The notes beneath the pieces were generated by a model. The model was not told where the DNA came from and ran no database searches. It saw only the letters and a list, made by a program, of their open reading frames with translations. Below, piece by piece: positions 1 to 27,954 of a stretch of DNA of 64,000 nucleotides. Both the position numbers and the translations under genes were made by a program. Numbering within the stretch: the first letter of the stretch is position 1; each line of letters begins with the position of its first letter. The stretch lies in NCBI RefSeq assembly GCF_030013595.1, contig NZ_CP122768.1; one strand, written 5' to 3'. This DNA comes from Escherichia coli. GTDB lineage: Bacteria; Pseudomonadota; Gammaproteobacteria; Enterobacterales; Enterobacteriaceae.

Positions 1-232
1 AGCGGCGGCAAAGTGGCAGCAGCTACAACGCGGAGCCGCAGCGTTCTCCATCACATTGGCACGTGGACGCGCAGAACTCTACCCCGAAATGCATGGCACG
101 GTAACAGGCTTTAAAAGCGAGATTGATAATCAGGACTGGATTATTGCGAAAGCCGAGCACACCATTGATAACAGCGGCTTTACCACGCAGCTTGAGCTTG
201 AGGCAAAAATCCCGGAATGGATAGCAGAATGA
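1..232 (+). CDS. 3' fragment of a phage late/tail gene, probably P2 gpD-like (runs off window start)
   Basis: Open frame from window start to TGA at 230-232 (..FTTQLELEAKIPEWIAE*); plus-strand, immediately upstream of an ogr-like gene as in P2 (D then ogr). Identification from position and weak sequence memory only. Confidence 0.4.
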   Translation, partial: AAAKWQQLQRGAAAFSITLARGRAELYPEMHGTVTGFKSEIDNQDWIIAKAEHTIDNSGFTTQLELEAKIPEWIAE

Positions 233-396
233 GACTCTTAAATGTATTAGTCCAGACACGTACTAGCGGGCTAAACGGCACAGTCTTATCTGACCATCTG
301 CCCCTGACACAGAGCAGACGGTCCTTGATCTTACCCACTAATAATGGACGCGCGACTAATATAATTTATTGCTTTTTATTTATACCTCACTGAGAT

Positions 397-1032
397 TTAG
401 CGAGCTAATATATTCAAAGAATTTAACAATTGAGTGTCGAGTGTTTCAGTTGCAGGAATCGGTAATCCATTCGCAATGCGGTAATTTTTCACAGACAGCC
501 TTGTGGATGGCCCCATTATGCCGTCAATATTTCCGTTATAAAATCCCCTGTCCAGCAATGCGAACTGAACTCGCATAATCAATCGCTTACGTTTCTCTGC
601 ATCAGAAGCAAGCCCATTACTCGTACGGTTAACCTCTGAAGTTCCAACAGAACTCGTGTTAGTGGTTCTATTATTATCGTTAGAACGAAGTGCACGCACC
701 GAGGAAGAGGACGATGAGGAACTTGCACCTGAACTTGAAGAACCAGATGAACTTGGTGAGCTGTATGTTTTTGGATAATAGGGGGTACTTCCACCATAGT
801 ATCCACCACCTGATGAGGATCTATGAGAGCTATGGCTCCTATGAGAACTATGGCTTCGATGCCCTGCGATATAAAATGGGACTTCCGTGTTAAGTGGAGC
901 TATCACTAAATCATGCTCATTAAGAGTCATACCAGGTAAATCACTCGCTCCTGTAGATGAATCGCTTGCCCATACAGAATTGTTGAGAGCCAAAAATCCC
1001 GGAAGTAGAGCAGCAAAATTAAACTTTTTCAT
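397..1032 (-). CDS. hxsA: HxsA-type His-Xaa-Ser repeat protein (signal peptide, tandem H-x-S triplets, Ser/Gly/Tyr-rich tract, C-terminal peptidoglycan-binding domain)
   Basis: Translation from MKKFNFAALLPGFLALNNSVWA (Sec-like signal) contains HRSHSSHRSHSSHRS, then SSPSSSGSSSSGASSSSSSSS, then a PG_binding_1-like C-terminus (LLDRGFYNGNIDGIMGPSTRLSVKNYRIANGL). Start ATG overlaps upstream gene stop (ATGA). Confidence 0.8.
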   Translation of the reverse strand: MKKFNFAALLPGFLALNNSVWASDSSTGASDLPGMTLNEHDLVIAPLNTEVPFYIAGHRSHSSHRSHSSHRSSSGGGYYGGSTPYYPKTYSSPSSSGSSSSGASSSSSSSSVRALRSNDNNRTTNTSSVGTSEVNRTSNGLASDAEKRKRLIMRVQFALLDRGFYNGNIDGIMGPSTRLSVKNYRIANGLPIPATETLDTQLLNSLNILAR

Positions 1033-2141
1033 AAAATTGGTCTCGGTGATTGATGAAAACGGCCTTTTGAGGAACTGAAATAGCCAGCACAGGAAGGCTT
1101 CTGAGTACATTCATCACATTCTTTTGGATAGTAATTTTTCCAATCAGAGATCGACTGAACAGCAAGCTCCCTAGCCCTTTCAGGAAGATAACACAAAGGA
1201 TAATTAAAAATTGTCAGAGGTATGCCTGACCTGTATGCAGCGTCTATGGCAGAGATTATTTTCTCACTATAACTACTGTGATCAATGAAGATGGTGGACC
1301 AGTTTTTTCGTGCCCAACCGATAGGCTCCAACCCCATAAGGGAAATCTGATTGATGTTGGAGAACACACGGCCAGCGAATTCTACGATATCATCCAATTC
1401 GGTATAGTTAGCCAGTGTAGGAATAACTCTAAGTTCGATATTAATCCCCAAGTTTCCTGCATTGATTAACCCTTTAACCGTTTCATTAAATGCGCCATCA
1501 CTCCCTACCAGATGATCATGCACAAGTGGTCTTGATGAGTAGAGCGGGATACCAAAGGTGATTTTGATCTTTTTGCTTCGCTTTGCCATTTCCTGTGTAA
1601 AGTTGGTATCAGCAAATTTGCGTCCGTTTGTTAAAACATGTAAAGCAGTATCTGGTGAATTCTCGATGATAAAATCAATGAAGTGAAGGAAGTCATCCCC
1701 ATATAGCAAAGGTTCACCACCGCTGACCCCAACAACTCCGTTCAAGCCAAATGAAGCTATAGCAAGAGCTGATTGGGTAAGTAGCCAGTCATCATTTATT
1801 TTCTTTGGTGGCTGCGAACAAAACAGACACAAGTTATTGCAGCGTTCCGTAACTAAGACAGTATTATGATTGGCTTTGCGTGACAGAATAACGCGTATCA
1901 TATTGCCATTGTTGATTATCCCAATATCTCCATCTTCAATTGACTCAAATAATTCAGTGCTAATAACAGAGAAATCAAAGCATGGTGGAATGGCATCATT
2001 ATTGCCTTCAGCAACTACTAGCAAATTGGGCAAAAAGAATAAAGGGTTCACTGGTTTTTGTTTGCATAACCGATAGAACCCCGTGGGCACGTTCTCTGTA
2101 GAAGCAAAATGAAAGATATCGTTCCTGATAACCTCAGACAT
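1029..2141 (-). CDS. Radical SAM maturase of the His-Xaa-Ser system (HxsB/HxsC-type; which of the two is not resolved)
   Basis: 370 aa ORF with CNNLCLFC (CxxxCxxC radical SAM cluster) and a C-terminal Cys-rich region (CDECTQKPSCAGY); sits between the other rSAM gene and hxsA with overlapping stop/start codons. Confidence 0.8.
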   Translation of the reverse strand: MSEVIRNDIFHFASTENVPTGFYRLCKQKPVNPLFFLPNLLVVAEGNNDAIPPCFDFSVISTELFESIEDGDIGIINNGNMIRVILSRKANHNTVLVTERCNNLCLFCSQPPKKINDDWLLTQSALAIASFGLNGVVGVSGGEPLLYGDDFLHFIDFIIENSPDTALHVLTNGRKFADTNFTQEMAKRSKKIKITFGIPLYSSRPLVHDHLVGSDGAFNETVKGLINAGNLGINIELRVIPTLANYTELDDIVEFAGRVFSNINQISLMGLEPIGWARKNWSTIFIDHSSYSEKIISAIDAAYRSGIPLTIFNYPLCYLPERARELAVQSISDWKNYYPKECDECTQKPSCAGYFSSSKGRFHQSPRPIL

Positions 2142-3522
2142 ATGCCCATCCTTTTAGCATCTCAGCCTTCGAACCACCCTCTGAGATGCAGTTCATCAGA
2201 TACCTGAACATCCCCTTGTGATATTGACAAAACGTTGAACGACTCCTATCACCGACAGGCTCACCCTGTACACTTATGTTCTGGCATGGATCTGAACCAC
2301 AAAATGGTTGATATGCACATGTATCACAACCTGGCAGAGCAAAATTGAACGATGAACTCAATACTGCGTTATAGTAAGGACTATCAGAAAATGATAGCGT
2401 CTTAACTTCACCCGCACTGAACTCCGTTTCAGGATTCACCTTCTGCAACATACGGCTCTCATCGCTACCATATACTCGACCGTCATAATTGAAAAGAATA
2501 CTGTTAAGCACGACTCCACTTGGAGACTTTAAATCCGCATAACCACTAAAACCGGGATTGAAGATCCTTTTCAGATGAATGGAGGCCGAATGTTCCACAA
2601 CCCTTATCCCTTCATTATTAATCTTAAGGATTTCATCTATCAACGAGGCATAGAAGCTGAAGTATTCGTCCATAGAAAAGGTGAAAGAAGCTTTTTGTGC
2701 AAACCCATAGGGACTAACAGGTCGGATAAACATGTCCTTGAGACCAAGAGACAAGTGAGCCTGAACAATCGATTCAGGACGTCTGATAAGCTCTTTAGTA
2801 ACTGTAGTAACCGTTGCAACGCGGCCAGCACCTAAAGAGTGTTTGATAGCCTCTACCCCTGACACTGTTCTACTGTACGCAAGCCCACGACCAAGAATTC
2901 GATTACTGTTGTGAACAACTTCCTCACCATCAAGCGACACAGAGAACGTTATGTTCCGGTCTCTCGACCATTCAATCATATCCTCATTCAAGACAGACAG
3001 ACTTGATGCCACCACCATCTCAAAATTGGTTCTTCCCAGCGTTTCAGCACATTGATCATAGATGCTCTGAATTAAATCAAACCGCAAGAGAGGCTCCCCA
3101 CCCTGTATCTCTATTTTGTAAGGTGGCGTTGATAGTTTTTTAATAGCCGAAATAATATCGGGGATGAGCTCAGGATTTAGGTCGTAACCTGAGGCATTAA
3201 CAGAAGCTCTACTAACCTGGCAATACTTGCATGTATGGTCACAACGTAATGTGGGTACAATCATGAAAATTGGCCTGACAGCCAGTTCATTCATCAATCG
3301 TTTTGCAAAAGCAGAACTTAAAGCATAGGGAGTTATAGCAGATGAGCTTTCACTGGTTATGAAAAGCTTACTTTCTAGCACGTTTGATTGCTCCGAACTA
3401 ATTCGCTCATCAGAAAGATCAATAAGGTCTTGCTCACCAATGAAATGATGAAAACCTGCAAGGTTGCTTATAAACACCTGTCCATTAGGCAATCTGTCAA
3501 AATTAAATGGCATCAATTCCAT
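2134..3522 (-). CDS. Radical SAM/SPASM-type maturase of the His-Xaa-Ser system (HxsB/HxsC-type)
   Basis: 462 aa ORF with CDHTCKYC radical SAM motif and C-terminal auxiliary-cluster cysteines (CDTCAYQPFCGSDPCQ...FCQ); stop overlaps next gene start by 8 nt; start overlaps hxsD stop (TAATG). Confidence 0.8.
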   Translation of the reverse strand: MELMPFNFDRLPNGQVFISNLAGFHHFIGEQDLIDLSDERISSEQSNVLESKLFITSESSSAITPYALSSAFAKRLMNELAVRPIFMIVPTLRCDHTCKYCQVSRASVNASGYDLNPELIPDIISAIKKLSTPPYKIEIQGGEPLLRFDLIQSIYDQCAETLGRTNFEMVVASSLSVLNEDMIEWSRDRNITFSVSLDGEEVVHNSNRILGRGLAYSRTVSGVEAIKHSLGAGRVATVTTVTKELIRRPESIVQAHLSLGLKDMFIRPVSPYGFAQKASFTFSMDEYFSFYASLIDEILKINNEGIRVVEHSASIHLKRIFNPGFSGYADLKSPSGVVLNSILFNYDGRVYGSDESRMLQKVNPETEFSAGEVKTLSFSDSPYYNAVLSSSFNFALPGCDTCAYQPFCGSDPCQNISVQGEPVGDRSRSTFCQYHKGMFRYLMNCISEGGSKAEMLKGWAYV

Positions 3523-3836
3523 TATGAAAGCCTCTCATCAACACTGCGAAGCACTTTATGGACAATAGAGTCTCTCAACGCCCCTGTTTTATGCTGTAGC
3601 TTTTCTCGCAAAGAGTAATCATTAAGCAGCCTATCGAATTCATAAAGGAATTTGGGATTATCGTTTTCAAAAGAGATTATCCAGTGGGAAACGTCTTCAT
3701 GGAGTTTCCATCGAGTAAGCGGAGTCATCCAATATAGACTATTGCGTATAACCCATTCAGAATATAGTTCTTTCTCAAACACTCTTTCGCTCATTGCAAT
3801 TATCTTCCAATACAAATATTCATGATCAGCAACCAC
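3522..3836 (-). CDS. hxsD: HxsD-type small protein carrying the LLNDYxLRE signature
   Basis: 104 aa ORF containing FDRLLNDYSLREKLQ; first gene of the four-gene minus-strand operon. True start may be an internal Met (MSERVF). Confidence 0.75.
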   Translation of the reverse strand: MVADHEYLYWKIIAMSERVFEKELYSEWVIRNSLYWMTPLTRWKLHEDVSHWIISFENDNPKFLYEFDRLLNDYSLREKLQHKTGALRDSIVHKVLRSVDERLS

Positions 3837-3871
3837 TTTAAAGCGGATTTTTCCTATGGCAACAATAATAT

Positions 3872-3974
3872 AACATATCCATAGATATGTTACAGATGCC
3901 TTGTTTCCCGTTGACTAATACATCACAACGTTAGTAATGGCTATCACAATTGTGAACTTCCACTTTTCACACAA
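3872..3974. promoter_or_regulatory. Divergent hxsD/ogr control region with two dyad-symmetric elements
   Basis: AACATAT-N6-ATATGTT palindrome at 3872-3891 and TGTGAA-N9-TTCACA dyad at 3954-3974, both in the 210-bp gap between divergent hxsD and ogr starts. Confidence 0.3.
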
Positions 3975-4046
3975 GACAAGCTGTTAATTGGAATCTGTAT
4001 CAGTACAACTTAGAATATCGGAAGCACCACAGTAAGGGAGGTCGCT

Positions 4047-4307
4047 ATGTTCCGTTGTCCGCTTTGTGGCGCATCCGCCCGAATCCGCACCAGTCGTCCG
4101 GAAAATGATTCAAACACCGTGCGGCAAAAGTATTACCAATGTAACAACCTAGAATGCGGCGTATGCTTCTCAACACTGGAAGCTTTCCATAAATTCACAT
4201 CAAAACACGCCTCCGGCGCTCACTCTTCAGAAGGTATCCCGTGGCATGAACTGCCAGCTTCACACAAAGGAAACAATCAGATGAGTTTGCCCTTACCTCA
4301 AAATTAA
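4047..4307 (+). CDS. ogr: Ogr/Delta-family zinc-finger late-gene transcription activator
   Basis: MFRCPLCGASARIRTSR...YYQCNNLECGVCF matches the P2 Ogr pattern (MFHCPLC..ARTSR...YHQCQNVNCSATF); C-terminally extended relative to P2 Ogr. Confidence 0.75.
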   Translation: MFRCPLCGASARIRTSRPENDSNTVRQKYYQCNNLECGVCFSTLEAFHKFTSKHASGAHSSEGIPWHELPASHKGNNQMSLPLPQN

Positions 4308-4367
4308 CAGGCAGAATTGCCGGAGTAACAAAAAAGAGATAGATTACGCGCGGGTGCCTTTCGGCTG

Positions 4368-4631
4368 ATGGTCGGAGGGAATACCCGAAGGCCAGATGTG
4401 GAAAGGCCCCGGAAAACATTTCTGTTTAACCGAGGCCCTAACCGCATTACCTTGACAAGTGAAAGGTTAGCGCCTCTCCGGAAAAGGAGCAAGTGCTATG
4501 TCGCAAAAATCGCTTACGGCCATCATGTTCTGCGTGACGGCAATCCTCATCATCTGGATGTTGCACGGTTCGCTGTGCGAAATACGGATGAGATTCTGGG
4601 GAGCGGAGTTTGCGGCGTTCTTACAGTGTAA
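4368..4631 (+). CDS. mok-like reading frame overlapping hok (translational coupling frame of a hok/sok locus)
   Basis: 87-codon ORF in a different frame that starts upstream of and overlaps the hok-like frame, the arrangement typical of mok. Confidence 0.4.
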   Translation: MVGGNTRRPDVERPRKTFLFNRGPNRITLTSERLAPLRKRSKCYVAKIAYGHHVLRDGNPHHLDVARFAVRNTDEILGSGVCGVLTV

Positions 4632-4638
4632 GCAGTAA
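4498..4638 (+). CDS. hok: Hok/Gef-family type I toxin, 46 aa
   Basis: ATG at 4498 preceded by GGAGCA; peptide MSQKSLTAIMFCVTAILIIWMLHGSLCEIRMRFWGAEFAAFLQCKQ has one hydrophobic helix and the Hok-type C-x-T...SLCEIR motif; the 5' element GGGTGCCTT (4352-4360) is complementary to AAGGCACCC (4695-4703), resembling tac/fbi pairing. Confidence 0.7.
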   Translation: MSQKSLTAIMFCVTAILIIWMLHGSLCEIRMRFWGAEFAAFLQCKQ

Positions 4639-4724
4639 GGAAACCGCGACGGGGGAGCAATCCCCCGTCAATCGGTTGCCAGGGTAAGGTCGATAAGGCA
4701 CCCTATCTCACAGACATGAACAAC

Positions 4725-4760
4725 AAACCCGCAACGTAAAAACTGCGGGTTTTCTTTTTG
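4725..4760 (+). terminator. Rho-independent terminator downstream of hok
   Basis: aaacccgcaacgtaaaaactgcggguuu hairpin followed by a T-run. Confidence 0.6.
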
Positions 4761-4902
4761 GTGTCCTTACTGACTTGAAACGGTGATCAGACTATAAGAC
4801 AAAGCCCACAATGTAGCGGGCTTACTCCCCTCTCCCTCCACTGAATGTGGACACATGGTGGAACGAAGATATATAAAACATTATAAATCAATCGGTTACT
4901 GA

Positions 4903-4928
4903 AAGAAAAAAGGCCGCAGAGCGGCCTT
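4903..4928 (-). terminator. Rho-independent terminator ending the minus-strand lambdoid gene set
   Basis: aggccgcagagcggcct hairpin with an A-run on plus strand (T-run on minus strand) immediately 3' of the ORF ending at 4949. Confidence 0.55.
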
Positions 4929-4948
4929 TATGGTTTATTGACAATTGA

Positions 4949-5164
4949 TTAAGACGTGTGGCACTTATTGGCACACCAATAGCAACCATTCACCCGGGAA
5001 TATCCTTTGGCCTTTGCCTCTGTTACCGCCGAAGAACAATCACTATAGTAACCAAGGTAATCGCGGTTAGCTACAGCAGGAAGATATGAACATTCCTCAG
5101 CATGCACCTCATGATCGCCATTGCTCTGAGCATTTTTGTTCACGTAATAGTGTTTAAAAACCAT
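4949..5164 (-). CDS. Hypothetical small Cys-rich phage protein
   Basis: 71 aa ORF, terminator immediately downstream; no family recognised. Confidence 0.4.
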   Translation of the reverse strand: MVFKHYYVNKNAQSNGDHEVHAEECSYLPAVANRDYLGYYSDCSSAVTEAKAKGYSRVNGCYWCANKCHTS

Positions 5165-5287
5165 TGTATAACTCCATGTTGACGCTGATATTCAGCATTA
5201 ACATGCTATATCACCAATTACACAAACATAAGCTTGTTATTTCAATTAGTTGATAACGATCACCACTGAACTTTGGCCTTGCGAAAT

Positions 5288-5497
5288 TCAAATGTTTTTC
5301 TGACTATTATTGGGCCGATAAACAGATATTATTTGAGCGTTTTGGTTCATTACATAAGCAATATCTCCATCTTTCAGAATGACTTTCCCATCCTTTCCCG
5401 ATACGGCAATACTCCGCTGCTCAGGATGATAGCCAATGCTACGCCCGCAATGGATCTCTTCCCCACCATTTTGAGACATGACTTTTACAGTTAACAT
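5288..5497 (-). CDS. Hypothetical small phage protein
   Basis: 69 aa ORF; no family recognised. Confidence 0.35.
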   Translation of the reverse strand: MLTVKVMSQNGGEEIHCGRSIGYHPEQRSIAVSGKDGKVILKDGDIAYVMNQNAQIISVYRPNNSQKNI

Positions 5498-5584
5498 TTT
5501 TCTGCTCCTATTTAGATGCCCTTTCCATCCGGGCCACTGTTCAAAGTAAATTTAGATTCAACAATATTCTGCTCTTACAGGCGA

Positions 5585-5767
5585 TCAGTTCTGCATACAC
5601 TGCCGAACACCGTCGACAATTTCACAGACCTGAGAAGCTGTATCGAAAAGCTGGCGCGCCTTATCCAGGCTGACGCATCCCACCAGGAAAAAAGGCACCA
5701 GTATCGCTACCAGTGCCCATTTCGCCGCCGTTCGCGGCATTCTGTGTGTCCAGTGTTTTCGCTTCAT
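5585..5767 (-). CDS. Small predicted lipoprotein (possible o-spanin or exclusion lipoprotein)
   Basis: MKRKHW... with hydrophobic signal and lipobox LVGC; lies downstream of the lysis cassette. Confidence 0.4.
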   Translation of the reverse strand: MKRKHWTHRMPRTAAKWALVAILVPFFLVGCVSLDKARQLFDTASQVCEIVDGVRQCMQN

Positions 5768-6266
5768 CTCACTATCCACCAATCAATCCGGATAAGCTCA
5801 ATACTCGCCAGGCGGTGGAAATGAAAATGGCAACCAACATTGCTGAAAATGAAAGGCCAACAACCACACAGAGAATTCGCGCCAGTTTTATAATGCTATC
5901 TGACATATTTACCCCTGCCCCACTTACGATTTCACAGCAATGAGCAATTTTGCCATCCCATACAGCATCGGAGACACAGCGATACCGACCGCCACCCACT
6001 TAATGGCAAAAGCCACCGCTCTGCTGATGTCATCAGTTACAGGCGCTTTCAATTCAAGGCCGTTTTTCATAGTCAACCTCAACAGAATTAGTTTATACTT
6101 CCTCATGTTCTCCTTTGCCTTACCCAAGGCCAGAAACAGAAAACCCCGGACTGTTACCGCAGCCGGGGTTTTTGCTATCTGATGCTATGCCCCTTACTTT
6201 CGCTCATCGTAGCCCCAGAAAAGAGCCTGCATGAGTTGAGGGTGTTCAGCACTTCAGTGTCAGTTT

Positions 6267-6812
6267 TTAAACCACCACGCGCTCTTTCATCCAGCCATAG
6301 ACAAACGACTCATTGGCCTCGCGTTTCTCTGCCAGCTCCAGATAACGCTCGCCCTGCGTACAGTTCAGGGCTTTCACCAGTACCAGTTCACCATCCCTGC
6401 TGCGATTTTTCAGATATGCCCGTAATGCATTAAGAGTACGCGGCCCGATGCGTCCATCAGCATCCATATCCGGATAGAGTTTCCCGCGCAGGTTGAAAAC
6501 GTTCAGCCAGCGCTGAAGCATTCTGGACGCCACAGTTGGCCCCATGTTCACGCCCGTATCGCACAACTCTGCGGCAATATCCGGAGACAGGTCCTCAACC
6601 TGGTCGAATCGTGGTCCGTACCAGTAGTCCGCCTCGAGTATTTCCAGCGCCTGCCCACGCGTCAGGTCACGCATATCGCCCTGATAACCGTGTGCACGGG
6701 CAACTTTTTCAGTGATGCCCCATTTAGTCGGACCACCTTTATCATCCGGGTGATTGACGTAACCGCCCTCTTTTCCCAGAATTTCGTCAAAAATTTCATC
6801 TTTCGACTTCAT
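6267..6812 (-). CDS. Endolysin, GH108-like muramidase with peptidoglycan-binding region
   Basis: MKSKDEIFDEILGKEGGYVNHPDDKGGPTKWGITE N-terminus typical of GH108 lysozyme-like phage proteins; follows two holin-like membrane genes. Confidence 0.65.
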   Translation of the reverse strand: MKSKDEIFDEILGKEGGYVNHPDDKGGPTKWGITEKVARAHGYQGDMRDLTRGQALEILEADYWYGPRFDQVEDLSPDIAAELCDTGVNMGPTVASRMLQRWLNVFNLRGKLYPDMDADGRIGPRTLNALRAYLKNRSRDGELVLVKALNCTQGERYLELAEKREANESFVYGWMKERVVV

Positions 6813-6813
6813 A

Positions 6814-7104
6814 TCAGCGCCTTCGTAATACAAGGATTTTTGATACGTTCCCGCGTGCTCGTATCACCAGCACGCAGAACACCAGGTTAATCAGGACGAC
6901 CAGCCAGTTACCGGGAGGAAAGCGACCACACAGATAACAAAGCGGCGCAAAGGCATAAAGCAGCATCAGCAGCCAGGCCAGCCACGACATCAGCGGTTTA
7001 TGTCTCGACTCACCACGACGATAAAAAAAGAGCGTCAGCACGATAACCGTGCTTAACACCACATTCAGTAATCCGGGAAGGTTACTTAACATTACCGCCT
7101 CCAC
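6814..7104 (-). CDS. Small multi-pass membrane protein, holin/antiholin-like
   Basis: 96 aa, strongly hydrophobic segments, wedged between holin-like gene and endolysin. Confidence 0.45.
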   Translation of the reverse strand: MEAVMLSNLPGLLNVVLSTVIVLTLFFYRRGESRHKPLMSWLAWLLMLLYAFAPLCYLCGRFPPGNWLVVLINLVFCVLVIRARGNVSKILVLRRR

Positions 7105-7471
7105 CCCGCAGACGGGAGAACAGCCCGGATACCAGCGATGCGATATCCTGCTGGTGGATGAATGAGAGAATCTTCACCGACACCACCGATACCAGTACCG
7201 CACAAAGCGCGTCGAGAGATGTGCTGTGGAGATTCAATTTTTCGACCAGCCAGGACGCAAGGACATCCGCCCCCAGCACGCCAACAATGAACGACACCAG
7301 AAAATGCGCCGCCACACGCCAGACAGAAATCACCTGTGGCATCGTGGCCACAAACAACGCCCCGGCAAACGCGCCAAACACAATCCCGAAATCCGTCCCG
7401 GTAAACAGCCCGAATACCGTCGCCCCGCCGAGCGCCACAGCAGTGCTGGAACCGGATAAGGGTTCAGACAT
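7082..7471 (-). CDS. Holin-like membrane protein
   Basis: Start MSEPLSG at 7471 with GGAGAA RBS; Gly/Ala-rich transmembrane segments; first gene of the lysis cassette. Confidence 0.5.
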   Translation of the reverse strand: MSEPLSGSSTAVALGGATVFGLFTGTDFGIVFGAFAGALFVATMPQVISVWRVAAHFLVSFIVGVLGADVLASWLVEKLNLHSTSLDALCAVLVSVVSVKILSFIHQQDIASLVSGLFSRLRGGGGNVK

Positions 7472-9095: not shown

Positions 9096-10181
9096 TTAGC
9101 TCCTGTTCTTATCTAATTGTGCATTTCGCAATTTATCGTTCAGCACCAATATTTCACCAACTGTTTGTTCAAAACGCCCGGACTCAAGTTCAACCCCAAT
9201 CGTGCGACGCCCCAATCCCATTGCTGCTTTTATTGTTGCCCCCGATCCCATAAAAAAATCCGCAACCACATCCCCCGGACGACTGCTGGCAGAAATTATC
9301 TGACGCAACATATCCGCCGGTTTTTCGCAGGGATGCTTACCCGGATAATACTGCACGGGCTTATGCGTCCAGACGTCCGTATAAGGAACGGCGGCCGATA
9401 CAGAAAAATAACGCCGCAGAGATTTGTATTCCTCAAGCAGACTGGCATATTGCCGGTTCAGTTCACTGTATGTGCTGACCAGTTGCTGGTGTGGCGTTGC
9501 CAGCTCCCCACGCTGGTGCTTTTCTTCTGCAACACACGCGAACAGCGCCTGCAGTTTTCTGTAATCAGCTTCGTTCGGTAACTGCCACTGACAGGTACCA
9601 AACCAGTGCGACACCATGTTTTTCTTTCCGGTGGCTTCCGCTATCTGTTTGGACGTTATCCCCAGTGATTCACGCGCATCACGGAAGTAAGAAATCAGCG
9701 GGGCCATGACGTGTTGTTTAAGCTCGCGCTCCTTTGCCGCATAGCCATCATTTTTTGGCTGGTATGGCCCCTGATAATGTTCGGCAAACAGAATGCGCTC
9801 TGTTGCCGGGAAATACGCCCGCAGGCTTTCTTTGTTGCACCCGTTCCAGCGTCCGGATGGCTTCGCCCAGATAATGTGGTTCAGCACATTAAAGCGCTCA
9901 CGCATCATGATTTCGGTGTCAGATGCCAGGCGATGACCACAGAACAGGTAGAGACTTCCGGCAGGTTTCAGTACCCGCCAGAACTGAGCCAGACACTGAT
10001 CCAGCCATTTCAGGTAATCATCGTCGCCCTTCCACTGGTTATCCCAGCCCTCGGGCTTCACTTTAAAGTATGGCGGGTCTGTGACTATCAGATCGACAGA
10101 GTTTTCCGGTAAGGTCTGGATAAATTCCAGGCAATCAGCGTTGATTAACTCACAACTGGATATTTTTACAGTATCAACCAT
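9096..10181 (-). CDS. Orphan DNA N6-adenine (or N4-cytosine) methyltransferase, beta class
   Basis: LIVTDPPYF (motif IV) precedes DFFMGSGATIKAA (motif I); no adjacent restriction endonuclease gene. Confidence 0.75.
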   Translation of the reverse strand: MVDTVKISSCELINADCLEFIQTLPENSVDLIVTDPPYFKVKPEGWDNQWKGDDDYLKWLDQCLAQFWRVLKPAGSLYLFCGHRLASDTEIMMRERFNVLNHIIWAKPSGRWNGCNKESLRAYFPATERILFAEHYQGPYQPKNDGYAAKERELKQHVMAPLISYFRDARESLGITSKQIAEATGKKNMVSHWFGTCQWQLPNEADYRKLQALFACVAEEKHQRGELATPHQQLVSTYSELNRQYASLLEEYKSLRRYFSVSAAVPYTDVWTHKPVQYYPGKHPCEKPADMLRQIISASSRPGDVVADFFMGSGATIKAAMGLGRRTIGVELESGRFEQTVGEILVLNDKLRNAQLDKNRS

Positions 10182-10702: not shown

Positions 10703-11416
10703 TTAACGCACTCTGACTGTATTAATTTCAAAATCATTAATATTTCCGCTATTAAATATAACGAATTTCTTACCCCCACTCCTGTATGATTTCGATAACA
10801 CCAGACGATCATCATAACGCGCAATAATGTAATACCATACATTCTCATAGTGGATCGCCTGATATTCCCTCTTAAACTGTGGTTTGTACCAACCGGCAAT
10901 AAGAGAGAATGCCCAGAAATAAATCATAAACCCAGCCATCATGAACTCAATTCGGTGATGACGAATAAAAGACATTTCCGAAAAACATTTGACTGAAACA
11001 AGTCTTCTTCCAAACCTGACAAAAAGCGTGATTGTAAAGGCAGCAAGAATGCAGAAAATCAGTACATCTGGCTCAACATGCTGATGGATTACCGAAAACT
11101 CCAGAACAGGTGGAATAAAAAGCAGCAATATCGCGAGAAAAAGCCGGATAAAACTCAAATTTTGTATATTGCGCTTTTGTTTTATGCCCAAAAAGAAAAC
11201 AATACCAACTCCCCATCCAATAAGGAATATAACGATAACTGTCACAGCATAAAACAAACTTCGTGCTACATCATCGACACCAGCCCCGACAACCCACCAT
11301 GGAAAGCCATAGTAAAATGAAGTACCCCATCCATAGAAATAAGCGCTTCCCCATCCTAGACAGCCCATATAAGCAACAAAAAGTGAAGAGTTTCTGAGCA
11401 GAGCACTGTCATCCAT
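10703..11416 (-). CDS. Multi-pass membrane protein of unknown function (first gene after pR'/tR')
   Basis: 237 aa with about four hydrophobic helices and an approx 50 aa soluble C-terminus; lies in a visibly AT-rich segment. Confidence 0.5.
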   Translation of the reverse strand: MDDSALLRNSSLFVAYMGCLGWGSAYFYGWGTSFYYGFPWWVVGAGVDDVARSLFYAVTVIVIFLIGWGVGIVFFLGIKQKRNIQNLSFIRLFLAILLLFIPPVLEFSVIHQHVEPDVLIFCILAAFTITLFVRFGRRLVSVKCFSEMSFIRHHRIEFMMAGFMIYFWAFSLIAGWYKPQFKREYQAIHYENVWYYIIARYDDRLVLSKSYRSGGKKFVIFNSGNINDFEINTVRVR

Positions 11417-11670: not shown

Positions 11671-12342
11671 CTATGAAAATGCCGCCTTTTGTTTTGAACG
11701 TGTTCCCTCCACCAACAATAAAGCTTCACCATCCAGCCGATGAAAAATGTGTTTCATTGCAACCCAGTGACCAGTAAATGTCTTGGACCAGTTTTTGGTT
11801 GTTACTCCCACCAGTAACGCCAGTTCCTGGTATTCGTAACCTTCCCCACCAAAAAGCTCAGCTTTTACCGCCTGCGCCGCCAACCAGATCAACGTCTTCA
11901 GGCGCACCAGAGTTTTTCCTGCAATTTTTCTGGTACCGGATTGAGCATTAAATTCAGTCCACGCCCACTGCGTTATCGCGATCTGATGCTCCCAGCAAAT
12001 GCTACCGCTGTAACACCACAGCAGCCAGGCTTTATGATGTTCTTCAAGAGACAGAACGGCGCGTCGCCATGATGATGTCGAAAACTCAACCGGACTGACC
12101 AGGGCAATTGATGAACCTTTCACCAGCGATTGCTTTCCCGGGATCGGTGGATTATCCAGCGTTACTATTTTTCCAGTGACCTTATCGCGGTACCGGATTT
12201 TTTTACGTCTGTAACGCCCTGTATTGAACATGGCATTCTCCTGCCAGGCTTCAAGCTGACCTTTTGTTGCTCCACTCAAATCAGCGGTGGCGATCATGAG
12301 CTGCTCACGCACAAACTGTAAATACTGGTTATTCATGCGCAC
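11671..12342 (-). CDS. Probable late antiterminator (Q-like)
   Basis: 223 aa ORF directly upstream of a promoter/terminator pair and downstream of rusA, the canonical Q position; family assignment by context only. Confidence 0.45.
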   Translation of the reverse strand: MRMNNQYLQFVREQLMIATADLSGATKGQLEAWQENAMFNTGRYRRKKIRYRDKVTGKIVTLDNPPIPGKQSLVKGSSIALVSPVEFSTSSWRRAVLSLEEHHKAWLLWCYSGSICWEHQIAITQWAWTEFNAQSGTRKIAGKTLVRLKTLIWLAAQAVKAELFGGEGYEYQELALLVGVTTKNWSKTFTGHWVAMKHIFHRLDGEALLLVEGTRSKQKAAFS

Positions 12343-12692
12343 TCCAGTTCTGTGATTTTTATCCCCAGCCGACCACCGGGAACAACCTGACCGCGCATAA
12401 TATTAACTTCATCAAACTGCTCATCGTCGATAAGCAGTCCCGCATGTGTCAGCGCATCCAGTGGTGCCTTCAGGATATTGTCCAGGTCGCGGCGGCGCTT
12501 ATCCGGTGGCTCTGCAATAATTTTTATTGCCAGCCTTCCGGACAGGTTTAATTTCAGTCGCTGCTGGCGAACAATAAGCGCCACATCACGGCGATAACGC
12601 TCACCGGCTTTTGATACAAAATATGTGCTGCCACGACGTCGCCAGTAGGTGTTCACCGTTGGCGGGTAAGGCAAAACAAATTCTATCCCCAT
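12333..12692 (-). CDS. rusA: RusA-family Holliday junction resolvase
   Basis: 119 aa; PYPPTVNTYWRRRG...RRRDLDNILKAPLDALTHAGLLIDD matches RusA conserved motifs. Confidence 0.85.
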   Translation of the reverse strand: MGIEFVLPYPPTVNTYWRRRGSTYFVSKAGERYRRDVALIVRQQRLKLNLSGRLAIKIIAEPPDKRRRDLDNILKAPLDALTHAGLLIDDEQFDEVNIMRGQVVPGGRLGIKITELECA

Positions 12693-12704: not shown

Positions 12705-13754
12705 TTATCCGAGTACGCCTGTTGCAAAGGCGTGATCAAGAAAACGAAAAATTAAATCAACCTGAGAACCATGTTTTTCTTCGAATGCCTGCGGATCCGC
12801 ATGAAGCTCGTTGTGATGCTCCCGACACAGCGGCAACGTAAAAATATCGTGGGCCTTTGTTCCCATCCCTCCCTGACCGTGACCAATCAGGTGATGGGGA
12901 TCGTCGGCTGGCTTACCACAACACGCACACGGCTGTGTCTTCACCCAGCGTGTGTATTTCTCATTTACCCAACGGCGACGTTTAGGTCGCTTCATGAAAG
13001 ATTCCGGAGACTCAGGATCAACGGCAATGCTGACCACCGTCTTTTCCTGTGGTGTGTTCTGTTGCTGGTGGACGTGAGGCAACGGCGCAAGATTTTTTGT
13101 GCGCTGCTTCAGTATGCTGGTGGCGGTCTGCTCTCCCGGTACGATGTCGCTTTCGCGGTAAACCGTGCGGATTTTTTCCGCACGTAATCCCAGAGAACGA
13201 CGTAATACTGCCTCCGGTAGCGCGTCCGCCACCTGATTGCAGACCGCCCACCAGGATAATTCAGCCAGCGATAATTCCCGTTCCTGTGCACCACTTATTG
13301 CGTGACGTATGACGTCAATCATCCAGGCTGTCAGATTTTGTTGAGCAAGCTGCCCGAGTGATTCGGATGTCTGGTCGCGCAGCTGGTTGTCGCAGTGCCA
13401 GCACAACAACATTGCGCCGGTACCGTAACGATGTATGACGGTTTCACTGTGGTGATAGTCTCCATGAGGCCACTGGCAGGATTTAACATGACGCAGGAGC
13501 CAGTCAGACAGTGCGCCAGCGCCGCCAGCAGCACGAATCACACGCTCATCGCTGAAAAACGGCAGCAATGTTTTATCTTCCGCCAGCGGCTGGCGAACGG
13601 CAGGAACGACTCCGGACGGCATACCGCGCATGTTTTTCGGTTCCGGCTCCACCAGCACCCTGCCGTTATGGAATACCTGCATGGATTCACGCCCCGGCTT
13701 AAGGACCACCAGCCCGAGTTCCGGTACCGGAACAGGTCGAAGTAATACCCGCAC
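12705..13754 (-). CDS. DUF968-like lambdoid nin-region protein with C-terminal Cys/His cluster
   Basis: 349 aa; C-terminus CACCGKPADDPHHL...CREHHNELH; family assignment from memory of YdfU-like prophage proteins. Confidence 0.5.
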   Translation of the reverse strand: MRVLLRPVPVPELGLVVLKPGRESMQVFHNGRVLVEPEPKNMRGMPSGVVPAVRQPLAEDKTLLPFFSDERVIRAAGGAGALSDWLLRHVKSCQWPHGDYHHSETVIHRYGTGAMLLCWHCDNQLRDQTSESLGQLAQQNLTAWMIDVIRHAISGAQERELSLAELSWWAVCNQVADALPEAVLRRSLGLRAEKIRTVYRESDIVPGEQTATSILKQRTKNLAPLPHVHQQQNTPQEKTVVSIAVDPESPESFMKRPKRRRWVNEKYTRWVKTQPCACCGKPADDPHHLIGHGQGGMGTKAHDIFTLPLCREHHNELHADPQAFEEKHGSQVDLIFRFLDHAFATGVLG

Positions 13755-14163: not shown

Positions 14164-14421
14164 ATGCGTACAACCCAACAATTCAGCATTACATTAACTA
14201 ACGAAATGGCTGACATGGTGCGCGCCCGTGTGGCTTCCGGTGCCTATGCTTCAGAAAGCGAGGTCATTCGTGAAGGGCTTCGCGCACTGAATGAGCGCGA
14301 TAAAGCAATCGAAGCGTGGTTAACGCATTCAGCCGCCCCCTCTCTTGATTCTATCCGCGAAACCCCAAACAACGGACGCTCCATTTCACAGGTTCGCGCC
14401 GCGATTCGATCCGGGAAGTAA
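14164..14421 (+). CDS. parD: ParD-family antitoxin (ribbon-helix-helix)
   Basis: 85 aa; MRTTQQFSITLTNEMADMVRARVASGAYASESEVIREGLRAL typical ParD; immediately upstream of a ParE-like gene. Confidence 0.8.
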   Translation: MRTTQQFSITLTNEMADMVRARVASGAYASESEVIREGLRALNERDKAIEAWLTHSAAPSLDSIRETPNNGRSISQVRAAIRSGK

Positions 14422-14426
14422 TCTGC

Positions 14427-14726
14427 ATGACATATGAAGTCATCATTACTCCTGAGGCCGAACAACAAATAATCAACCTGCACAGGTATATAACGGAGAA
14501 AGCAGGGAACGTCATTGCTGACAATTATGCCAATGCGCTTCTTGATTATCTTGATGGGTTTTCTACATTCCCGCATCGGGGCAATAAACGCGATGATATT
14601 CGCCAGGGGATGCGGGTAACTCATTTCCGCCACAGAACGATTATTGCTTTTGCCGTTGATAGCAGAAAAGTCTTTATTGTCGGTATCTATCATGGTGGGC
14701 AAAGTTATGAAACCGATTTCTTATAA
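14427..14726 (+). CDS. parE: ParE/RelE-family toxin
   Basis: 99 aa; starts 6 nt after parD stop; a hairpin terminator follows. Confidence 0.75.
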   Translation: MTYEVIITPEAEQQIINLHRYITEKAGNVIADNYANALLDYLDGFSTFPHRGNKRDDIRQGMRVTHFRHRTIIAFAVDSRKVFIVGIYHGGQSYETDFL

Positions 14727-25647: not shown

Positions 25648-25899
25648 ATGTACGAATTAACTCTATCGCCAGCAGAGATTCAAGAGATCACGAAATACGA
25701 GCGATACACAAAACAGCAACACCAGTTAAGGCTGCACGGTATCCCATTTGTAATCGGTCCTAAAAACGAACCAATAGTTCTTCGCAGGGATATTCCACAC
25801 GGACTGACTACGATGCCAAAAGCACCTGAACTGGTTTCCGCTGAACCCGATTTTGAGGCGCTGAACAATGGGAAGACCAAGAAAAAACAAAAAAGATAA
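25648..25899 (+). CDS. Probable excisionase / small recombination directionality protein
   Basis: 83 aa ORF overlapping the integrase start by 32 nt; assignment by position. Confidence 0.4.
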   Translation: MYELTLSPAEIQEITKYERYTKQQHQLRLHGIPFVIGPKNEPIVLRRDIPHGLTTMPKAPELVSAEPDFEALNNGKTKKKQKR

Positions 25900-26887
25900 T
25901 GCACTACCACCGCGTGTTAGATCGAATGGTTACAGTTACGTATGGAAACCCGAAGGAAGCACAAGAACTATAGGGCTCGGAAGAGTGCGGGAAACCAGCG
26001 TAGCTAAAGTCTGGCAAAATTATGAGCTGGAAAAAGCAAAACTCCACAACATAATGACAGTAGCTAAATTATGGCACATGTTTATGGACTCCCCTGCATT
26101 TACAGAACTGGCCCCCCGAACCCAAAAAGATTATCGGCAACATCAAAGGGCATTGTTGGCAGTATTCGGAAAAGTGCTTGCTGATAATGTAAAAATTGAA
26201 CAGGTAAGAATTTTCATGGATAAGCGAGGACTTGAGAGCAAGACCCAAGCAAACCATGAACTGGCAAGTCTGAGCCGTGTATACGGATGGGGATATGAGC
26301 GTGGGTATGTGAAAAATAATCCATGCAAAGGAGTCAGAAAATTCACACTTAAAGCCCGTACTGTTTACATCACCGATGAACAGTATGCTGCAATATATGC
26401 GGAAGCAATTCCACAGTTACGTATTGCAATGGAGATATCCTATCTTTGTGCGGCAAGGCTCGGTGATGTACTCGAGCTGAAATGGCAGGATATTATGGAG
26501 AAAGGGATTTACATTGAGCAAAACAAGACCGGCACTAAACAAATCAAGGAATGGTCTCCGCGATTACGTACGGCGATCCAGTTAGCCCGAAATGTATCTT
26601 CCGGCACATGCGAGTATGTGATCAACACAACCAAAGGCGGGAAGGTAATAGCCAAGACGCTGAACAACTGGTGGAATCAGGCTAAACGTGCAGCCGAGCA
26701 AAAAGCCGGCGTTCCGTTTGGGTGCAACTTCCATGACATAAAAGCCAAAGGGATTTCAGATTACGAAGGCAGCAGTCGCGACAAACAAATTTTCAGTGGA
26801 CACAAAACAGAAAATCAGGTGTTGATTTACGATCGTAAAACCAAAATAACACCAACACTGGATTTGCCGCTTGTGGTCAGTAAGTAG
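25868..26887 (+). CDS. Tyrosine-type site-specific integrase
   Basis: 339 aa; catalytic-region motifs (LCAARLGD, HDIKAKG, LIYDRK); adjacent to tRNA-derived att. Confidence 0.85.
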   Translation: MGRPRKNKKDNALPPRVRSNGYSYVWKPEGSTRTIGLGRVRETSVAKVWQNYELEKAKLHNIMTVAKLWHMFMDSPAFTELAPRTQKDYRQHQRALLAVFGKVLADNVKIEQVRIFMDKRGLESKTQANHELASLSRVYGWGYERGYVKNNPCKGVRKFTLKARTVYITDEQYAAIYAEAIPQLRIAMEISYLCAARLGDVLELKWQDIMEKGIYIEQNKTGTKQIKEWSPRLRTAIQLARNVSSGTCEYVINTTKGGKVIAKTLNNWWNQAKRAAEQKAGVPFGCNFHDIKAKGISDYEGSSRDKQIFSGHKTENQVLIYDRKTKITPTLDLPLVVSK

Positions 26888-27028: not shown

Positions 27029-27088
27029 CGGTCTTGAAAACCGGCGACCCGAAAGGGTTCCAGAGTTCGAATCTCTGCGCTTCCGCCA
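27029..27088 (+). repeat. att core: truncated 3' 60 nt of tRNA-Ser (serT) ending in CCA; not a functional tRNA
   Basis: ggtcttgaaaaccggcgacccgaaagggttccagagttcgaatctctgcgcttccgcca matches anticodon stem to acceptor 3' end; the 5' 28 nt are replaced by AT-rich phage sequence. Confidence 0.8.
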
Positions 27089-27294
27089 AATAAGATAAGG
27101 GGTTAGCTAAATGCTACCCCCTTTTTCTTTTGCCTGTCGAAATTCTCAGGGCGTTATATTTGCTTAATGACCTGATAATCCGCTGTTAAACCTGTTCCAG
27201 ATCAAATGCGTAAAGATGGGTAAAACTTCTGGGTGCCCTTACGCATTATCATTATGCTGCTTAATTAATTACATCTGTCATAGAGAGTGACTCA

Positions 27295-27954
27295 ATGGAT
27301 CGTATTGTTAGTTCTTCACATGACCGTACATCGCTGCTTAGCACCCATAAGGTGCTGCGTAATACCTATTTTCTGCTGAGCCTGACGCTGGCCTTTTCTG
27401 CGATTACCGCAACTGCCAGTACGGTGCTGATGCTGCCATCTCCGGGTCTGATTCTGACGCTGGTGGGTATGTATGGTTTGATGTTCCTGACCTATAAAAC
27501 GGCGAATAAGCCGACCGGGATTATCTCCGCATTCGCCTTTACCGGTTTTCTGGGTTATATCCTCGGACCAATTCTGAATACCTATCTGTCTGCCGGAATG
27601 GGTGACGTAATCGCTATGGCACTGGGCGGAACGGCGTTAGTGTTCTTCTGCTGCTCTGCATATGTGCTGACCACCCGCAAAGATATGTCGTTCCTCGGCG
27701 GTATGCTGATGGCGGGTATTGTGGTGGTGCTGATTGGTATGGTTGCTAATATCTTCCTGCAACTGCCTGCTCTGCATCTGGCGATCAGCGCGGTCTTCAT
27801 TCTGATCTCCTCTGGCGCTATTTTGTTTGAAACCAGCAACATCATTCATGGCGGTGAAACGAACTATATTCGTGCCACGGTTAGCCTGTATGTTTCGCTG
27901 TACAACATCTTCGTCAGCCTGCTGAGCATTCTGGGCTTCGCCAGCCGCGATTAA
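27295..27954 (+). CDS. yccA: YccA, FtsH modulator (Bax inhibitor-1 family membrane protein)
   Basis: 219 aa; sequence and synteny match E. coli yccA. Confidence 0.9.

Follow-up and report, generated by a model that had tools for sequence, protein, structure and literature searches.

A P2-like prophage joined to a serT lambdoid prophage in Escherichia coli: probable integration at a secondary attachment site

The junction and its attachment core

We analyzed a 64,000-nucleotide stretch of an Escherichia coli genome (assembly GCF_030013595.1, contig NZ_CP122768.1; hereafter the window), in which a P2-like prophage is joined to a lambdoid prophage. Positions 1–4906 are the right end of a P2-like (P88/Xuanwuvirus-like) prophage; the window begins inside this element, and everything further left is known only from other contigs. 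On the other side of the join, minus-strand lambdoid late genes end at 4949, and all genes rightward from there through the late region are lambdoid and on the minus strand. Our analysis indicated that positions 4902–4935 are very probably attR', the right hybrid attachment site of a temperate P2-like phage (Peduoviridae, P88/Xuanwuvirus-like) that carries HxsABCD and a hok/sok-type locus.

We compared the window with 5,426 complete E. coli genomes, and draft genomes, Logan contigs and IMG/VR contigs were also consulted. Loci and contigs read for comparison are labelled L001–L096; a window coordinate equals the L016 coordinate minus 5503. Approximately 1,600 of the complete genomes matched the P2 end at 3800–4935 and then ran into ihfA. 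These matches ended at window positions 4929–4935, with the ihfA stop codon 9 bp further on, and in 45 complete genomes the prophage at btuC/ihfA was 99.3–99.6% identical to the P2 part of the window. A separate set of 20 complete genomes carried the same lambdoid prophage uninterrupted, matching the window from 4907 rightward at 99.6–100%. The two sets of matches overlap at 4907–4935, which bears out the proposal of the first-pass annotation that two phage backbones meet here (at ~4902–4935). A three-way alignment identified the common piece as AAAAAGGCCGCAGAGCGGCCTTT; the window is P2-type to the left of this piece and lambdoid-type to the right of it.

The first-pass annotation had proposed a search for P2-type att cores, and one was found. 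Comparison of attL, attR and attB, together with the empty site of K-12 and a tabulation of the att sites, placed a 25-nt core, AAAGAAAAAAGGCCGCAGAGCGGCC, at 4902–4926. Strain H22 carries a P2-like prophage in the btuC–ihfA interval, with int, a 131-aa open reading frame (ORF) and the core at the btuC end, and its attL and attR share the core. The empty primary site of K-12 reads ...GTGAAAAGAAAAAAGGCCGCAGAGCGGCCTTTTTAGTTAGATCAGATTA(ihfA stop). We concluded that the normal target of this P2-like phage is the ihfA terminator in the btuC/ihfA interval; that the primary site is the terminator of ihfA itself is a curiosity, given the role of IHF. The P2-like prophage PP_SE11-4 of E. coli SE11 is 35.8 kb long and lies in the btuC–ihfA interval with a 25-nt duplication (PMC2608844), with which the length of our core agrees.

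Twenty nucleotides of the core (4907–4926) are identical in attP, the chromosomal attB and a look-alike site within the lambdoid prophage, which we call attB'; the crossover would therefore lie within them. The core motif occurs once in the window, against 0.01 occurrences expected. Relative to the P2 core, attB' matches at 22 of 25 bases, 20 of them contiguous. With the ihfA terminator it shares the 23 contiguous nt of AAAAAGGCCGCAGAGCGGCCTTT, beyond which the flanks do not align convincingly, and its sequence is compatible both with capture from the host site and with chance similarity of a simple terminator. At the right end of the mature lambdoid genome, ~0.4 kb away from cos, the attB' hairpin forms an internal terminator that separates the lysis-side ORFs from Nu1/terminase. 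An empty attB' was found in the 20 complete genomes mentioned above; L003, L005, L021, L022, L091 and L093 were each read with the site empty.

Hairpins were scored by folding energy and by z value against shuffled sequences. The core contains one at 4909–4929, whose perfect 9-bp stem has a run of A on one side and a run of T on the other. Its folding energy is −14.8 kcal/mol on one strand and −14.3 kcal/mol on the other (z of −3.0 and −4.7, respectively), and no shuffle equaled it. Judged from its sequence, the same element is a predicted bidirectional terminator, the shared att core and the junction point of the two genomes. Low-scoring Rfam matches to Trp_leader and STnc540 on this hairpin were rejected as generic terminator matches. 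The first-pass annotation had described each backbone as ending in its own terminator. Both hairpins exist, but the first (4725–4752 on the plus strand, followed by TCTTTTT; −12.6 kcal/mol, z −1.5) ends a hok/sok-type locus and not ogr, and the second is the shared att core. A spacer of ~140 nt separates the hok terminator hairpin from the core. This spacer (4760–4901) is the ogr-side arm of the P2-like attP, i.e., the P arm of attR', and is 100% identical to the arm beside ihfA in L017, L018 and L020.

In the window, attR' combines the P2-type left end GAAAGAAAAAAGG with the lambdoid right flank; the opposite junction, attL', combines the lambdoid left end AACATGAAAAAGG with the P2 int arm and was found in other genomes (see below). 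The five variable core positions segregate to opposite junctions in the tabulated att sites, as predicted by a conservative exchange inside the 20 identical bases. As far as the core, the window has the sequence of attR in H22 and L017; from 4907 on, it has that of the uninterrupted lambdoid prophage.

Recurrence of the junction and the state of the lambdoid prophage

The Hok protein of the window carries a rare T10M change, which served as a lineage marker; 45 blocks of the collection list this variant. We read 24 contigs encoding T10M Hok, and 20 of these carried the window junction (L016 and 18 similar places, and L019), with both L016 and L019 99.99% identical to the window. Most of the T10M-Hok contigs read thus bear the lambdoid junction. 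In the remaining four, a P2 right end with 100% identity, extending over as much as 10.4 kb, lay beside ihfA, indicating that the same phage type uses both sites. IMG/VR was scanned with two junction strings (attL' and attR'), and the window junction was also present in two IMG/VR contigs and in further Logan contigs from other runs. One of the IMG/VR contigs, L096 (UViG_2778261251_000007), is a window-lineage junction contig with 99.97% identity. It starts at window position 4853, inside the P2 arm and 54 nt left of the shared 20 core bases (4907); this start could reflect an arm that is present twice, for example with a second copy at ihfA, or equally a trivial assembly break.

We considered whether an assembler might have wrongly fused two contigs at a hairpin common to both. 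The common sequence is short (20–29 nt) and palindromic, and as such liable to confuse assemblers that use a small k. The same junction, however, appears in at least 20 independent NCBI assemblies, several Logan assemblies and the two IMG/VR contigs, and the junction contigs extend many kilobases to both sides; an artefact is therefore scarcely credible. We concluded that the window junction is real, whether clonal or recurrent.

We then examined the uninterrupted lambdoid prophages, whose left flank was read in two genomes, N18-04097 and HCP5S3_I2, and in HCP5S3_I2 as far as serT. HCP5S3_I2 is ~99.9% identical to the window and colinear with it from 4907 past yccA, with equal spacing. In both genomes, directly left of 4907 there is ~0.6 kb matching lambda cos/nu1, followed by Nu1, large terminase, portal, protease, decoration, capsid and tail genes; further left HCP5S3_I2 has J, Lom, tail fibre, tail-fibre assembly, intact serT and hyaA. 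The claim of the first-pass annotation that the lambdoid element lacks morphogenetic genes is thus true of the window, where no lambdoid terminase, head or tail genes were found, but not of the nearly identical HCP5S3_I2, in which such genes lie directly left of 4907. The same annotation had held that lambdoid structural genes contiguous with this region would count against its picture of the junction; they are contiguous in the uninterrupted relatives, and in the lineage of the window the left junction was not reached.

A deletion of lambdoid morphogenetic genes does occur in related prophages. In L076 the lambdoid element has lost 20.7 kb, from Nu1 codon 8 to the 3' third of the tail-fibre gene, across a 7-bp microhomology (L076 4664–4670), and the deletion creates an in-frame Nu1'-'tail-fibre fusion ORF of 259 aa. 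The fusion protein was present on only seven contigs, five with an empty attB' (L091 and three similar places, and L093) and two with a P2 insertion (L092, which equals L076, and one similar place). Because the deletion was found both with and without the insertion, the two arose independently, and the serT lambdoid prophage exists in an intact as well as a gutted form. The fusion is absent from most of the at least 20 junction-bearing assemblies, so the lineage of the window is probably free of this particular deletion. The absence of morphogenetic genes from the window would then be mainly an effect of the insertion, and mostly of where the window begins.

These data bear on the other reading offered by the first-pass annotation, that a cryptic lambdoid remnant merely abuts an independent P2-like prophage, either in tandem or through a fusing deletion that removed the morphogenetic genes. 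The 20.7-kb Nu1-to-tail-fibre deletion in related serT prophages (L076, L091, L093) is real and lends this some plausibility. Nevertheless, the join coincides exactly with the att core, which the P2 arm reaches from one side and from which every base on the other side follows the lambdoid sequence; relatives with the deletion keep the core and ~0.6 kb of left flank whether or not they carry the P2 insertion; and the P2 phage's own site is btuC/ihfA, ~0.76 Mb away, while the join is internal to the lambdoid genome. We therefore regard simple abutment as very improbable.

The reciprocal junction was found in two other genomes, one holding attL' alone (GCA_012541535.1) and one holding both junctions (IMG genome 2737471845). 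The first came to light through a look-up of a P2 replication protein. In the orientation of the window, its contig L076 runs hyaB, hyaA, serT, tail-fibre assembly, a truncated tail-fibre gene, 637 bp of lambdoid cos-side flank and then the core; the junction string is AACATGAAAAAGGCCGCAGAGCGGCC followed directly by ATAAACACAAGTGAAAATCAATAAGTTAGA..., after which come P2 cargo ORFs, Int and the C repressor, and further on A, ParM, portal and terminase. This is the predicted attL', which connects the int end of the P2-like prophage with the lambdoid prophage on its serT side, and not with btuC. In genome 2737471845, attL' is on L094, with the small and large terminase subunits left of the flank (phrog_141, phrog_15), and attR' is on L095, which shares 98.9% identity with the window across 12.9 kb. 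A P2-type integrase and C repressor at the opposite end, near attL, were seen in relatives both at btuC (L004) and at the lambdoid site (L076, L094).

Chromosomal inversion offers another path to the same right junction. Here attR at btuC/ihfA would have recombined with the inverted look-alike in the serT lambdoid prophage, by way of Int or of RecA acting on the 20–23 nt of identity, flipping the segment between them, which we take to be ~0.76 Mb from K-12 map positions. Gene orders suggest that the two cores point in opposite directions along the chromosome, as this path needs, and other strains have an identical P2 right end at ihfA. However, attL' of L076 and L094 joins the int end of the P2-like element to the left flank of the lambdoid prophage (in L076 also to serT and hya), which is the product of integration and not of inversion, and no junction of ihfA with the lambdoid left side was seen in any locus fetched. 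Moreover, 20–23 nt is far below the size of an efficient RecA substrate, and for lambda- and P2-type integrases attR x attB is not a normal reaction, as the intasome needs both arms. Overall, an inversion is unlikely. It retains a small probability for the window's own genome because the left junction there was not reached.

We concluded that the P2-like phage very likely integrated by site-specific recombination into a secondary attB' inside a resident serT lambdoid prophage; of the two possibilities in the first-pass annotation, integration of one element into the other is the one that held. Several points weigh against this conclusion. None of the 5,426 complete genomes spans both sides of the window junction, and the right junction alone is equally compatible with inversion of attR at ihfA with attB'. 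Look-ups by exact protein sequence did not lead to the left junction in the lineage of the window, and the terminase variant of HCP5S3_I2 was found on 21 contigs, none of them beside P2 genes or ihfA. L076 and genome 2737471845 carry differing P2 and lambdoid variants (89–99% identity); they establish the mechanism, and not the history of the window itself.

Most of the look-up proteins were too widespread or led off the lineage. HxsB returned 969 blocks with only ihfA contexts; the V protein, an 89-aa ORF (11,002 blocks), the P2 terminase, a 120-aa cargo ORF (6,699 blocks) and a 131-aa variant (P0018) returned only btuC or unrelated contexts; and cluster listings of Int, the 131-aa ORF and C did not discriminate the lineage. 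A P2 contig of GCA_012651895.1 (32,462 bp) ends between 0.7 kb short of attL and 0.6 kb past it, depending on the left-end variant assumed. Among isolated phages, none had the core with the lambdoid right flank, and none had this attP.

Gene content of the two prophages

Protein families were assigned with PHROG, Pfam and NCBIfam (curated cut-offs), RNAs with Rfam (gathering score), and RefSeq annotation was consulted. The window opens with the last 232 nt of gpD (1–232, plus strand), encoding a tail/baseplate spike-like protein; this end is colinear with the 367-aa PF05954 Phage_GPD gene of L016 (4632–5735), and RefSeq annotates it likewise in H22 and A24. The late-gene activator ogr (4047–4307, plus strand) encodes an Ogr/Delta zinc finger (PF04606; phrog_603, E = 3.6e-15). 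Its match to NCBIfam PRK09678 scores 43 bits, under the cut-off of 116, so the gene is best described as a predicted Ogr-family member and not as an equivalog of that model. The gpD and ogr calls of the first-pass annotation were upheld by these homology searches (PF05954 for the L016 gene; PF04606 and phrog_603). Its picture of plus-strand gpD and ogr converging on lambdoid late genes was right for ogr and for the minus-strand lambdoid genes, with gpD represented by its final 232 nt only. Its coordinates were right; its naming of gpD and ogr left out the hok locus and a 3.4-kb minus-strand cassette (397–3794) that separates these two genes.

This cassette is a complete HxsABCD set carried as cargo between gpD and ogr. 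All four genes are on the minus strand, bear RefSeq names and are equivalogs by NCBIfam, each above its curated cut-off: hxsA (397–1032; TIGR03979, 161 bits), hxsC (1029–2141; TIGR03977, 398 bits), hxsB (2134–3522; TIGR03978, 559 bits) and hxsD (3522–3794; TIGR03976, 91 bits). A 2026 report describes HXS as an anti-phage system that blocks phage DNA entry (PMC13128918). PADLOC 2023 contained no HXS model and gave only weak radical-SAM matches to the cassette. The cassette is kept at the gpD–ogr position in 45 complete genomes, with many copies interrupted by insertion sequences (IS2, ISCro1, ISVsa5, IS600).

Beyond ogr lies the hok/sok-type type I toxin-antitoxin locus (4352–4757, plus strand), recognized from the Hok protein, a mok-like ORF and the terminator hairpin described above. 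The hok gene (4498–4638, plus strand) matches phrog_251 (E = 7e-23) and Pfam HOK_GEF, and the mok-like ORF in the ORF listing (4368–4631, plus strand) overlaps it. NCBIfam Hok models match the protein below their cut-offs, and the Rfam sok match (RF01794; 49.4 bits, E = 1.4e-9) is under the gathering score of 59.

Contigs 99.99–100% identical to the P2 part of the window (L016, L017, L032, L036) continue with a full P2 gene set: gpD, sheath, tube, E, T, U, H, I, J, W, V, S, R, portal, terminase and capsid. In this lineage the tail block FI-FII-E-T-U is opposite in strand to gpD/ogr and V-W-J-I-H-G (L001 1–4433; L016 1–5735; L032 8740–16188), gpD is divergent from the sheath gene and U is convergent with a tail-fibre assembly gene; on the canonical P2 map, FI-FII-E-T-U, gpD, ogr and V-W-J-I-H-G are co-oriented. 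The slot between int and the att core holds alternative cargo (L004 16394–16789; L076 5426–6225; L094 4688–5104), either a 131-aa ORF (phrog_14142) or a 120-aa ORF with a 109/145-aa ORF, and both versions are very widespread (240 to 6,699 blocks).

Draft contigs of this P2 sub-lineage stop repeatedly at the same points, gpU codon ~100 (L034, L040) and H (L033, L035, L037, L047, L048). We rejected double lysogeny as a reading of these recurrent ends, which show no more than a repetition of part of the tail-fibre region in those genomes. The 47-kb contig from which L047 was read is 100% identical to L036 in V–H, and its head region is identical to P2-like prophages with an integrase beside pheL; this suggests a second P2-like prophage that shares the tail-fibre segment, and mosaic exchange. 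Given this possible origin, L047 was left out of the evidence.

The lambdoid right end (4927–7471, minus strand) is identical or nearly identical to the uninterrupted prophages and was further assigned through phrog_4298, phrog_3909 and Pfam. It includes small ORFs from the ORF listing at 4949–5164 (71 aa), 5288–5497 (69 aa), 5585–5767 and 5924–6106 (phrog_4298, phrog_3909), and, by Pfam, a GH108 endolysin (6267–6812) and holins (6814–7092 and 7082–7471), all on the minus strand. The gene tables of L016 and L003 placed next, on the same strand, a DNA methyltransferase (9096–10181), a TfpB-like gene (10703–11416), antiterminator Q (11671–12336), RusA (12333–12692) and a DUF968 gene (12705–13754). 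A ParD/ParE-type toxin-antitoxin pair lies on the plus strand at 14164–14726 amid this minus-strand region (Pfam ParD_antitoxin and ParE_toxin; L016 table).

At the far end is the lambdoid tyrosine integrase (25868–26887, plus strand), an ORF whose match RefSeq names 'tyrosine-type recombinase/integrase'. The truncated serT copy noted by the first-pass annotation at 27029 is confirmed: positions 27029–27093 (plus strand) are a displaced serT 3' part, identical at 65 of 65 nt to the serT 3' end plus AATAA taken from L021, and form the int-side att of the lambdoid prophage. No intact tRNA was called in the 64-kb window, in line with the remark of that annotation that the intact serT is not there. 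The serT' copy is followed by yccA (27295–27954), tusE and rlmI. With an integrase beside the duplicated serT 3' part and with Q, RusA and holin/endolysin in lambda order, the features point to a lambdoid prophage integrated at serT, its int end adjoining yccA.

Consequences of the integration and comparison with known systems

Several steps of the proposed integration were observed directly: attB, attL and attR of the primary site, attB' as the secondary site, the two hybrid junctions and the location of the crossover in the 20-nt identity. The tyrosine integrase of the P2-like phage, which normally acts on the ihfA-terminator core, would have used attB' instead, presumably with host IHF as established for P2. 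The lambdoid prophage would thereby be split: its int-to-lysis part (4927–27093) would stay beside yccA, and cos and the morphogenetic genes would be pushed to the far side of a ~36-kb P2-like prophage, beyond the window. The window genome should also carry the reciprocal junction, with the expected left order hya-serT-(lambdoid tail...Nu1-cos, or deletion scar)-AACATGAAAAAGGCCGCAGAGCGGCCATAAACAC-P2 int. The circle junction of the excised attP would read ...GGTTACTGAAAGAAAAAAGGCCGCAGAGCGGCCATAAACAC....

The predicted outcome is a disabled lambdoid prophage whose late operon is severed from its structural genes. The insert would come between the pR'-Q late transcript on one side and cos with the structural genes on the other; from cos to cos, the composite would be ~46 + 36 kb, or ~82 kb, too long for a lambda-type head. 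With the late operon split and the composite past this packaging limit, the lambdoid prophage would be disabled unless the P2-like element excised first. The insertion would also set the P2-borne HXS cassette in the same orientation as the Q-antiterminated late transcription of the lambdoid; on entering the insert, such transcription would read the hxs genes in the sense direction and hok and ogr in the antisense direction.

A more far-reaching idea, which we rate as rather doubtful, is that the ihfA-terminator look-alike near cos is a recurrently used, selectable landing pad for P2-like phages. If it were true, P2-like insertions would have occurred in at least two or three independent backgrounds, and cutting the late operon from the packaging and morphogenetic genes would amount to inter-prophage sabotage or to a first step of domestication, with deletion following later, as in L076.

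Integration at attB' would explain an apparently gene-poor, cryptic lambdoid prophage without any loss, its structural genes having been moved away by a prophage nested within it. Prophage-calling programs, and anyone reading a short window, would accordingly mis-score both elements. The insertion should disable the lambdoid prophage while bringing in the HXS cassette and the hok locus, and in this way it bears on how polylysogens silence, and then erode, their resident prophages. The arrangement was found in at least 20 draft assemblies and in no closed genome, suggesting that nested prophages are under-represented among finished references.

Prophages within prophages are already known, and the present case is a further example. 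Nakamura, Ogura, Gotoh and Hayashi (2021) described nested prophages formed through attB copies inside prophages, termed attB-in-PP (PMC8112680). Their three sites, of 21, 96 and 121 bp, serve lambda-like phages and lie beside type III effector loci near prophage ends, with recognizably host-derived flanks (yecE, ykgJ/ecpE, ompW; PMC8112680). The likeness to our case is close: a short copy of the normal chromosomal target lies inside a resident, often defective lambdoid prophage, nested prophages with hybrid att sites result, and the unoccupied site is widespread in related prophages. In contrast, the incoming phage here is P2-like, whereas the published cases involve lambda-like phages entering lambda-like prophages; our site is a terminator ~0.4 kb from cos in the lysis/packaging interval, not an effector locus; and its similarity to the chromosomal site does not extend beyond ~23 nt. 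A P2-like phage and an internal, cos-proximal terminator are thus added to the few documented attB-in-prophage sites, which so far concerned lambdoid phages and effector loci.

Within the P2 family, use of imperfect cores away from the primary site is familiar from the secondary attachment sites of P2 itself (locII, locIII, locH and others). Those classical sites involve another integrase specificity and core, and the secondary site described here is in a prophage and not in the chromosome proper. The ogr–hok region is 94–97% identical over ~0.7 kb to that of phages P88, Chuche, PhiR44_2 and 500465-2 (Peduoviridae, Xuanwuvirus), but the similarity stops at the hok terminator (~4760), and the attP and integrase module of these phages are of another kind; the hits to these four phages listed no hxs match. 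A close counterpart is PP_SE11-4 (PMC2608844), which has the same integration module, core and ogr–hok arm; in the window, the right arm leads into lambdoid DNA where PP_SE11-4 adjoins ihfA.

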